Part shown: positions 56,753 to 57,624 of the stretch, piece by piece
Numbering within the stretch: position 1 is the first letter of the stretch
How the letters are laid out: the number at the start of each line of letters is the position of its first letter
Assembly (NCBI RefSeq): GCF_033153115.1
Contig: NW_026889778.1
Span: 26,660,001-26,724,000, forward strand
DNA: 64,000 nt
Source: Saccostrea echinata
Taxonomy: Eukaryota
Direction: 5' to 3'
Program-made: the position numbers and the translations under genes
The notes under the pieces: generated by a model
Databases searched by the model: none
Told to the model about the DNA's origin: nothing
What the model saw: the letters and a program-made list of their open reading frames with translations, nothing else

Positions 56753-57215
56753 TCAGGGGTCCCACAGCAACCAATTAATTGAAAAAGGACCAAAAAGGAC
56801 GTTGTGAGAATGGGGGCAATAATTGCCGCTGACAAACAACTATATAAGCCCTACCTTTTTGAGAAAAAAAAAATAATTCCCGGCGAATTTTTAACACATC
56901 CTCCCCAAAGCCAAATCCTGGATCTGCAACCTGAGGCATATTCGAGTATGGATGTTATGCCATAAGAAGCCTTTCTGCTACATAATGATAGAAAATGATT
57001 AAAATTTGATTTTGTTCTACAGGAACAATTTGCAAATACAACCAAATGAATGATCTACATAAAAACAAGTACACAAAAAGCAAACAAACAGACTTTTTTA
57101 TATGAGAAAATACATGTAAACAAACATTGGGGAAAATAGAGAGAGAAAAAAGGGAACATGTTATAAAAGTAATAATTTAAAAAAAAAAAATTAAAATTAA
57201 TTCCTTGCAAGAAAC

Positions 57216-57249
57216 CAGAGACATAAAAAACCTATTATTTATGTCTCTG
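57216..57249. mobile_element. 34-bp TIR-only insert with 7-bp TSD (P-superfamily excision footprint)
   Basis: aagaaac|cagagacataaaaaacc-tattatttatgtctctg|aagaaac, with a 12-bp perfect terminal IR. Confidence 0.75.
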
Positions 57250-57624
57250 AAGAAACCTATACATGTTAAAGTCCTTTTGAGATACTTGTGATCTATCGAG
57301 ATCTCTTCATTCAGTGTAACTGTGGTGACAGATCATATGGTCAAAATAGTTAAATTATAATCTAACGACAGAGTTAAACATGAAAATGCTACGTAAATTC
57401 TTTGAAGAATTATTTTCAGGAAAAAAAATGTCTCTGAAAGTTTTGATACAATCCCTGTAACACTGCGGAAGCACTGTCTACATGTGCATCATATACATGC
57501 AAAAAAAGAAAAGAAAAAAAATTACTTTTGCCATAATTATGATAGATGTTATCAAAAATATTATGAGAACTTTATATATGTAGCTTATTTTTCAAAATAT
57601 TCAATAAATAAAATGTTCGTTTGA

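Follow-up and report, generated by a model that had tools for sequence, protein, structure and literature searches.

Cut-and-paste transposons of the P superfamily are the closest described systems. In the accessible parts of PMC7776569, the P transposase makes a 17-nt staggered cut, generates 8-bp duplications and favours promoter regions; the 17-nt stagger marks P transposition off from that of other cut-and-paste elements. When the fly P element excises, 17-nt 3′ tails stay behind between the two TSD copies (PMC2895639 and PMC7776569, in the portions available). The transposase sites of fly P ends lie internal to the 31-bp repeats, and a zebrafish element of the P group carries a short terminal repeat of 13 bp (PMC7776569, same parts). 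Two further members of the superfamily, 1360 and Galileo, have 7-bp TSDs (PMC3698922, available sections), and 49 of 170 Galileo copies are derivatives consisting of the two ends only (PMC3573991, available sections).

The outcome of P excision is documented in the junction tables of PMC2895639, which, in the part available, hold 114 junctions by hand count (66 + 23 + 25; the legend gives 68 for the first). One full tail joined to a trimmed tail with an insertion accounts for 21 of these 114, a 32-bp form with a 2-nt TA overlap for 10, and a blunt 17+17 join for one; two junctions are exactly 34 bp long, one blunt and the other with filler. These counts are only a guide, coming from Rad51 or Rad51/pol-theta mutants and from P tails that share terminal microhomology. 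Junctions of the SD-MMEJ type are recognized by a repeat motif of at least 4 bp, a distal motif end within 30 bp, and a primer and a microhomology of at least 1 bp each (PMC5728401).

Here, we describe a 34-bp core in the oyster Saccostrea echinata, located at 57216-57249 of a 64,000-nt stretch of contig NW_026889778.1 (the window). The core begins with CA and ends with TG (CAG…CTG), and lies between two copies of a 7-bp repeat (table 1). We consider it to be the excision scar of a P-like transposon with 7-bp TSDs, with a probability of about 0.8 summed over three readings of the core as a scar.

Table 1. Coordinates of the 34-bp core, its proposed repair elements, neighbouring proposed scars and flanking genes (window positions).
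Feature	Position	Strand	Remarks
TSD, left copy	57209..57215		7 bp, AAGAAAC
Core, left part	57216..57232	+	perfect arm 57216-57227; CC at 57231-57232 is filler or end sequence
Core, right part	57233..57249	-	possibly a whole 17-nt element tip; agrees with 56035 arm at 13/17 in register
TSD, right copy	57250..57256		7 bp, AAGAAAC
Junction 8-mer AAACCTAT	57228..57235	+	identical to 57253-57260; SD-MMEJ-type repeat motif
Candidate filler template	57253..57260	+	in right TSD and flank
56035 scar	56028..56073		32-bp perfect palindrome 56035-56066, exact 7-bp TSD
Third scar (candidate)	55623..55674		core 55630-55667, 38 bp; 7-bp TSD with 1 mismatch; different end family
SLC25A3 (mitochondrial phosphate carrier), first coding exon	57855..57975	+	protein match; end approximate
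PDHB exon	near 42.9-43.0 kb	-	found in window
PDHB candidate first coding exon	52516..52547	-	assigned from orientation and splice donor; limit of the 5.1-kb interval

An earlier note on this DNA had described 34 bp flanked by a 7-bp TSD, and this description is exact: among direct-repeat lengths of 4-10, 7 is the only one that fits when symmetric ends are required. Its perfect inverted repeat of the outer 12 pairs also stands, but its inner bases are not all non-complementary as it had stated, since two of the five inner pairs (positions 14-15) do pair, giving 14/17 in total. Nothing in the sequence fixes the place of the junction after base 12 of the core; bases 57228-57230 of the left part are probably still element end. 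The target site is not palindromic (score 0/11). Calling the core an excision footprint, as the same note did, agrees with the structure left by P-type excision, in which the element tips remain between the copies of the duplicated target (PMC7776569 and PMC2895639, in the parts available). The first 9 bases of the core have a sole other exact copy in the window, at 57428-57436 on the minus strand, 190 bp downstream and without a TSD; this copy is either a chance match or a decayed end.

The structure departs clearly from chance expectation. With the core allowed to span 24-80 bp, a scan for inverted repeats of at least 12 bp enclosed by an exact 7-bp direct repeat gives three matches in the window and none in each of 40 local dinucleotide shuffles, and pure chance is rejected for the 57216 core on this count (0/40). 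Of these three, the match at 35084 is an AT-rich stretch in the middle of a longer repeat that is itself palindromic. The window holds two long, nearly fully palindromic non-autonomous repeats, at 34731-35440 and 60770-61555. The hairpin of the 57216 core has a z-score of -7.85, and none of 200 shuffles reaches its stability. A relaxed scan (CA…TG, 20-44 bp, at least 8/10 arm pairs, a 7-9 bp repeat with at most one mismatch) returns four cores against a shuffle mean of 0.23 and maximum of 2: 56035-56066 (32 bp), 57216-57249 (34 bp), 55630-55667 (38 bp) and 17046-17078 (33 bp, 9-bp repeat). A tighter setting loses 55630, while a looser one loses 17046 and gains a repeat-internal match at 22844. 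The 17046 core is unrelated to the CAG-ended arms; it lies within 17037-17087 as a 33-bp CATG…CATG core with arms pairing at 11/17 and an exact 9-bp direct repeat, or alternatively as 35 bp with a 7-bp repeat.

The neighbouring cores bear directly on how the 57216 core is to be read. Read as minus strand, its right 17 nt agree with the 56035 palindrome arm at 13/17 in register, positions 16-17 included; of the 8165 other 17-mers in the window that start with CA, one reaches this level. Its left 17 nt agree at 10/17, a level reached by 172 of the 8165. The two scars look related in their end families on this comparison, and because of the right-half resemblance they would not be independent witnesses, contrary to the proposal that the 57216 core came from a different, independent family. 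The perfect palindrome at 56035 leaves the depth of its cut unfixed, as 16+16, 17+17 with a 2-nt overlap and 18+18 with a 4-nt overlap all fit the same letters. The arms of the 55630 core are imperfect (14/18 pair) and flank two central bases (CC); if this core is a scar, it suggests tails of at least 18 nt, or filler mimicking such tails, and so a cut deeper than 17 nt. With this third candidate, the 17-nt geometry proposed for the other two scars does not look general here. The right arm of 55630 also matches 56754-56771 at 16/18, with the match running on into longer sequence. A search of the window gave 56754-56771 no TSD-flanked partner; it may be a solo end or the interior of another repeat.

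The parent of the 57216 core was likely a member of the P superfamily, judging from TSD length and end structure. The superfamily has TSDs of 7 or 8 bp, and here the TSD is an exact 7 bp. The terminal inverted repeat, 12 bp and perfect, begins with CA, a feature that is, to our knowledge, general across the P superfamily and not diagnostic for it. TSDs are 8 bp in hAT elements and TA in Tc1/mariner (TcMar) elements. A hAT origin is rejected on the grounds that an 8-bp TSD does not fit the core, and a TcMar origin on the grounds that the flanks are a 7-bp repeat and not TA. Bivalve hAT and TcMar families also begin with CAG, as seen in the available part of the curated bivalve DDE library of PMC10294476. 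Over about the first 400 letters of each entry in that library (supplementary file 31), five of six 10-letter search terms gave no match and the sixth gave one internal match. Among the library starts listed (six of seven for CAGAGA, six of seven for CAGGGA, three of three for CAGGGGT), all belong to hAT or TcMar families with other ends, and the family list in the accessible part of PMC10294476 names no P family. Nothing on 7-bp-TSD families was found in the available portion of PMC8268682. A full-text search, whose scope leaves most subscription journals and Repbase outside, found no paper on such scars in oysters.

Exact matches to the 12-mer arm in the window are the two arms of the core only; allowing up to two mismatches gives 15 matches, which is near chance (shuffle mean 8.9; a count of 15 is reached in 4 of 100 shuffles). 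The window yielded no long CA-ended element with 57216-type ends and a 7- or 8-bp TSD within 8-20 kb, nor any relative of intermediate length with these ends. The one match, at 23050-25524, is set aside, its flank being just a continuation of its inverted repeat. The region 22735-25772 is a large element of nested inverted repeats that contains short tandem units. In nine sequencing runs the share of matching sequence words reached 0.07 at most, a level that is no evidence either way. A Pfam scan covering 39 of the window's 46 long frames detected no P-type transposase, the other seven being repeat-internal, low-complexity or overlapping with SLC25A3 exons. Searches of viral, metagenome and prokaryote collections yielded no parent ends. 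The paired-arm pattern occurs at no viral locus and its sister pattern at one, with one further locus in metagenomes and two in Clostridium; none of these four look-alikes has a 7-bp TSD, and they are set aside as unrelated hairpins. Single 17-mers occur at seven and two viral loci, each without a partner arm in the DNA examined, and with the partner absent all nine are read as chance. Unrelated bacterial hairpins (L001, 1501-1541; L009 and L010, 301-332) share the same 12-bp arms without a TSD, which calls for caution in pattern searches.

Several features of the junction are suggestive of repair synthesis. The 8-mer AAACCTAT recurs in the right TSD and flank, and its copies at 57228 and 57253 agree at 10/11 once extended. 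Judged by the published SD-MMEJ features (PMC5728401), the junction has an 8-bp motif with its distal end at 28 bp, a TAT primer and an AAA microhomology. The candidate template begins 21 bp from the junction and so falls one base outside the 20-bp limit given in the accessible part of PMC2943611; a 17-nt single-stranded tail would move the nearest duplex out to this distance. Against random pairs of 30-nt window flanks, searched in both orientations, an 8-bp match arises in 1.5% of draws (n = 20000) if the centre is set at CC and in 8.5% (n = 3000) if it may fall anywhere in core positions 13-22, in both cases for a repeat found post hoc. Junction repeats in the other three candidate cores reach 3-4 bp at most. 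The repeat is no more than suggestive of templated filler, and is also compatible with an apparently blunt 17+17 join, in which case it would have pre-existed by chance.

The account of the 34 bp that we favour, at slightly under even odds, is a donor site repaired with the right tail whole at 17 nt, the left tail trimmed and templated filler between them (about 15+2+17). Insertion of the element would have produced the 7-bp duplication now seen, and a later excision with a long staggered cut would, by analogy with the fly P mechanism, have left the tips as 3′ tails, here from an end family akin to that of the 56035 scar, whose arm the right half resembles. The right tail would have stayed whole at 17 nt and the left one been shortened to about 15 nt, with 12-15 nt conceivable. 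Synthesis could then have started from the right tail's tip, paired with TAT in the right flank, and have produced CC followed by A's, which would have annealed with the A-run on the left; given the repeat, the pathway would be a loop-out form of synthesis-dependent end joining of the polymerase-theta type. The total of 34 bp would therefore merely resemble 17+17. This account requires one more change at position 13, which could be slippage, a mutation acquired later or a mismatch between the two parent ends. The scar itself is probably neutral.

The earlier note had instead held that both 17-nt overhangs were kept in the absence of terminal microhomology, which amounts to a parent with a 12-bp perfect terminal repeat whose two whole tails were joined blunt. 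This is possible, although we would bet against it. The core is exactly 34 bp long, short terminal repeats are known in the group (the zebrafish element with 13 bp; PMC7776569, accessible part), imperfect arms are seen in this genome in the 55630 candidate, and a blunt 17+17 join was recovered once in flies. That single case, however, stands among 114 junctions, against 21 in which a full tail and a trimmed one meet across an insertion (PMC2895639, available tables); the 8-bp junction repeat would have to pre-exist by chance at the rates of 1.5-8.5% given above; and the left half diverges from the 56035 arm at its junction end, where the right half retains positions 16-17. The position of the junction inside an 8-bp repeat of the flank fits trimming and templated filler, and the retention of both overhangs is for these reasons not upheld. 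We regard as highly improbable a third scar reading, in which an older 32-bp palindrome like that at 56035 (17+17 with a 2-nt overlap) later acquired CC and one substitution by mutation. One substitution and a 2-bp insertion would indeed turn such a palindrome into the present core, and the 2-nt-overlap product makes up 10 of the 114 fly junctions (PMC2895639, same tables), but this puts two later mutations into a stretch of 5 bp and leaves 12 arm pairs and both 7-bp repeats untouched, and the junction repeat would go unexplained.

Two explanations dispense with excision of this kind. The core could be an internal-deletion derivative, formed by abortive gap repair or a later deletion, or a tiny element inserted at its present size, in which case cut depth could not be read from its length. 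Two-end-only derivatives are common in Galileo (49/170; PMC3573991, available sections) and core lengths in the window differ (32, 34 and 38 bp). Yet all three cores lie within the 30-38 bp of fly excision junctions (as far as the available tables show) and the window holds no intermediate-length relative with these ends, while a 34-bp unit should be immobile if its transposase sites lay internal to 31-bp repeats as in fly P (PMC7776569, accessible part); we think this explanation unlikely. The chances are slimmest for an origin without a transposon (a chance hairpin, or a duplication made by repair with snap-back synthesis) or from a non-P superfamily. The parent was not found, the 9-bp arm match 190 bp downstream (57436, minus strand) is a possible template, and similar hairpins without a TSD occur in bacteria. 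Against this, no shuffle of 40 gives such a structure, the arm resembles a separate TSD-flanked core 1.2 kb away, a 7-bp TSD is missing from all four long look-alikes in bacteria and viruses, and among other superfamilies the 8-bp TSD of hAT is unfit and the flanks are not the TA of TcMar.

The scars lie on the promoter side of a housekeeping gene. Three coding stretches match the SLC25A3 protein of Saccostrea echinata at 100% over the 103 residues searched, whereas in the same comparison the S. cucullata protein reaches 96% and that of C. gigas 94%. The ATG at 57855 is 606 bp past the 57216 core. The transcription start is placed provisionally at about 57.7 kb because of what we take to be a CRE-like motif at 57631 and a CCAAT motif at 57650, together with a splice-donor-like site near 57728. 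PDHB and SLC25A3, both mitochondrial housekeeping genes, appear to be arranged head to head about 5.1 kb apart. An NHL-repeat exon (45590-46417, plus strand) seemingly lies within the PDHB span on the opposite strand. All three 7-bp-TSD cores sit in the divergent interval of about 5.1 kb, which is 8% of the window and contains other repeats too; the chance of such clustering is 0.0005 for 3/3 and 0.002 for 3/4, both calculated post hoc. The location near the SLC25A3 promoter, which had been put down to the preference of P elements, is thus borne out as to gene and promoter-side clustering, and as to cause a P-specific preference is plausible, as is a general tolerance of insertions, from which it does not stand apart here.

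Related repeat pieces at 59139-59220, 61593-61671 and 63451-63732 lie in SLC25A3 introns, with motifs that by eye resemble the hAT-Tip100 starts of the bivalve library. Elsewhere, the window contains three C1q-domain exons (1383-1688, 13232-13792 and 26581-27006, minus strand), protein-kinase exons (33972-36735, minus strand) and one assembly gap (27042-27183).

One scar without its parent is modest evidence, and its wider meaning can be put forward only tentatively. Promoter regions of oyster housekeeping genes may form a natural library of scars from several P-like families with 7-bp TSDs, in which a long staggered cut would extend beyond Drosophila with a family-specific depth (17 nt in the end clade of 56035 and 57216, and 18-19 nt in that of 55630), joints would be of the polymerase-theta type, cut depth and pathway would be readable from genomes alone, and some scars would possibly be segregating promoter variants. 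If so, the oyster scars would extend the 17-nt staggered cut to a mollusc lineage and let the depth of the cut and the end-joining pathway be read without bench work, and short TSD-flanked palindromes would serve as class markers for unclassified 7-bp-TSD repeats in oysters.

The comparison with known systems brings out both likenesses and differences. Like the P footprints of Drosophila melanogaster described in the available parts of the fly literature, the oyster scar has tips between TSD copies, CA…TG ends, a core within 30-38 bp, a candidate filler or templated junction and a promoter-side location; it differs in its 7-bp TSD (8 bp in the fly) and its end sequence, and in being natural in an assembly and known without its parent, whereas the fly footprints were induced. 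Galileo and 1360 resemble the oyster scars in their 7-bp TSDs, and in two-end-only derivatives (PMC3698922 and PMC3573991, in the sections available), while the very long terminal repeats of Galileo are unlike the 57216 core. As in SD-MMEJ junctions, the 57216 junction lies inside a direct repeat of the flank with primer and microhomology parts, although the oyster case is single and post hoc and its template is at the outer edge of published distance limits. Excision scars of this type are already known in flies, and the oyster case would add to that kind.
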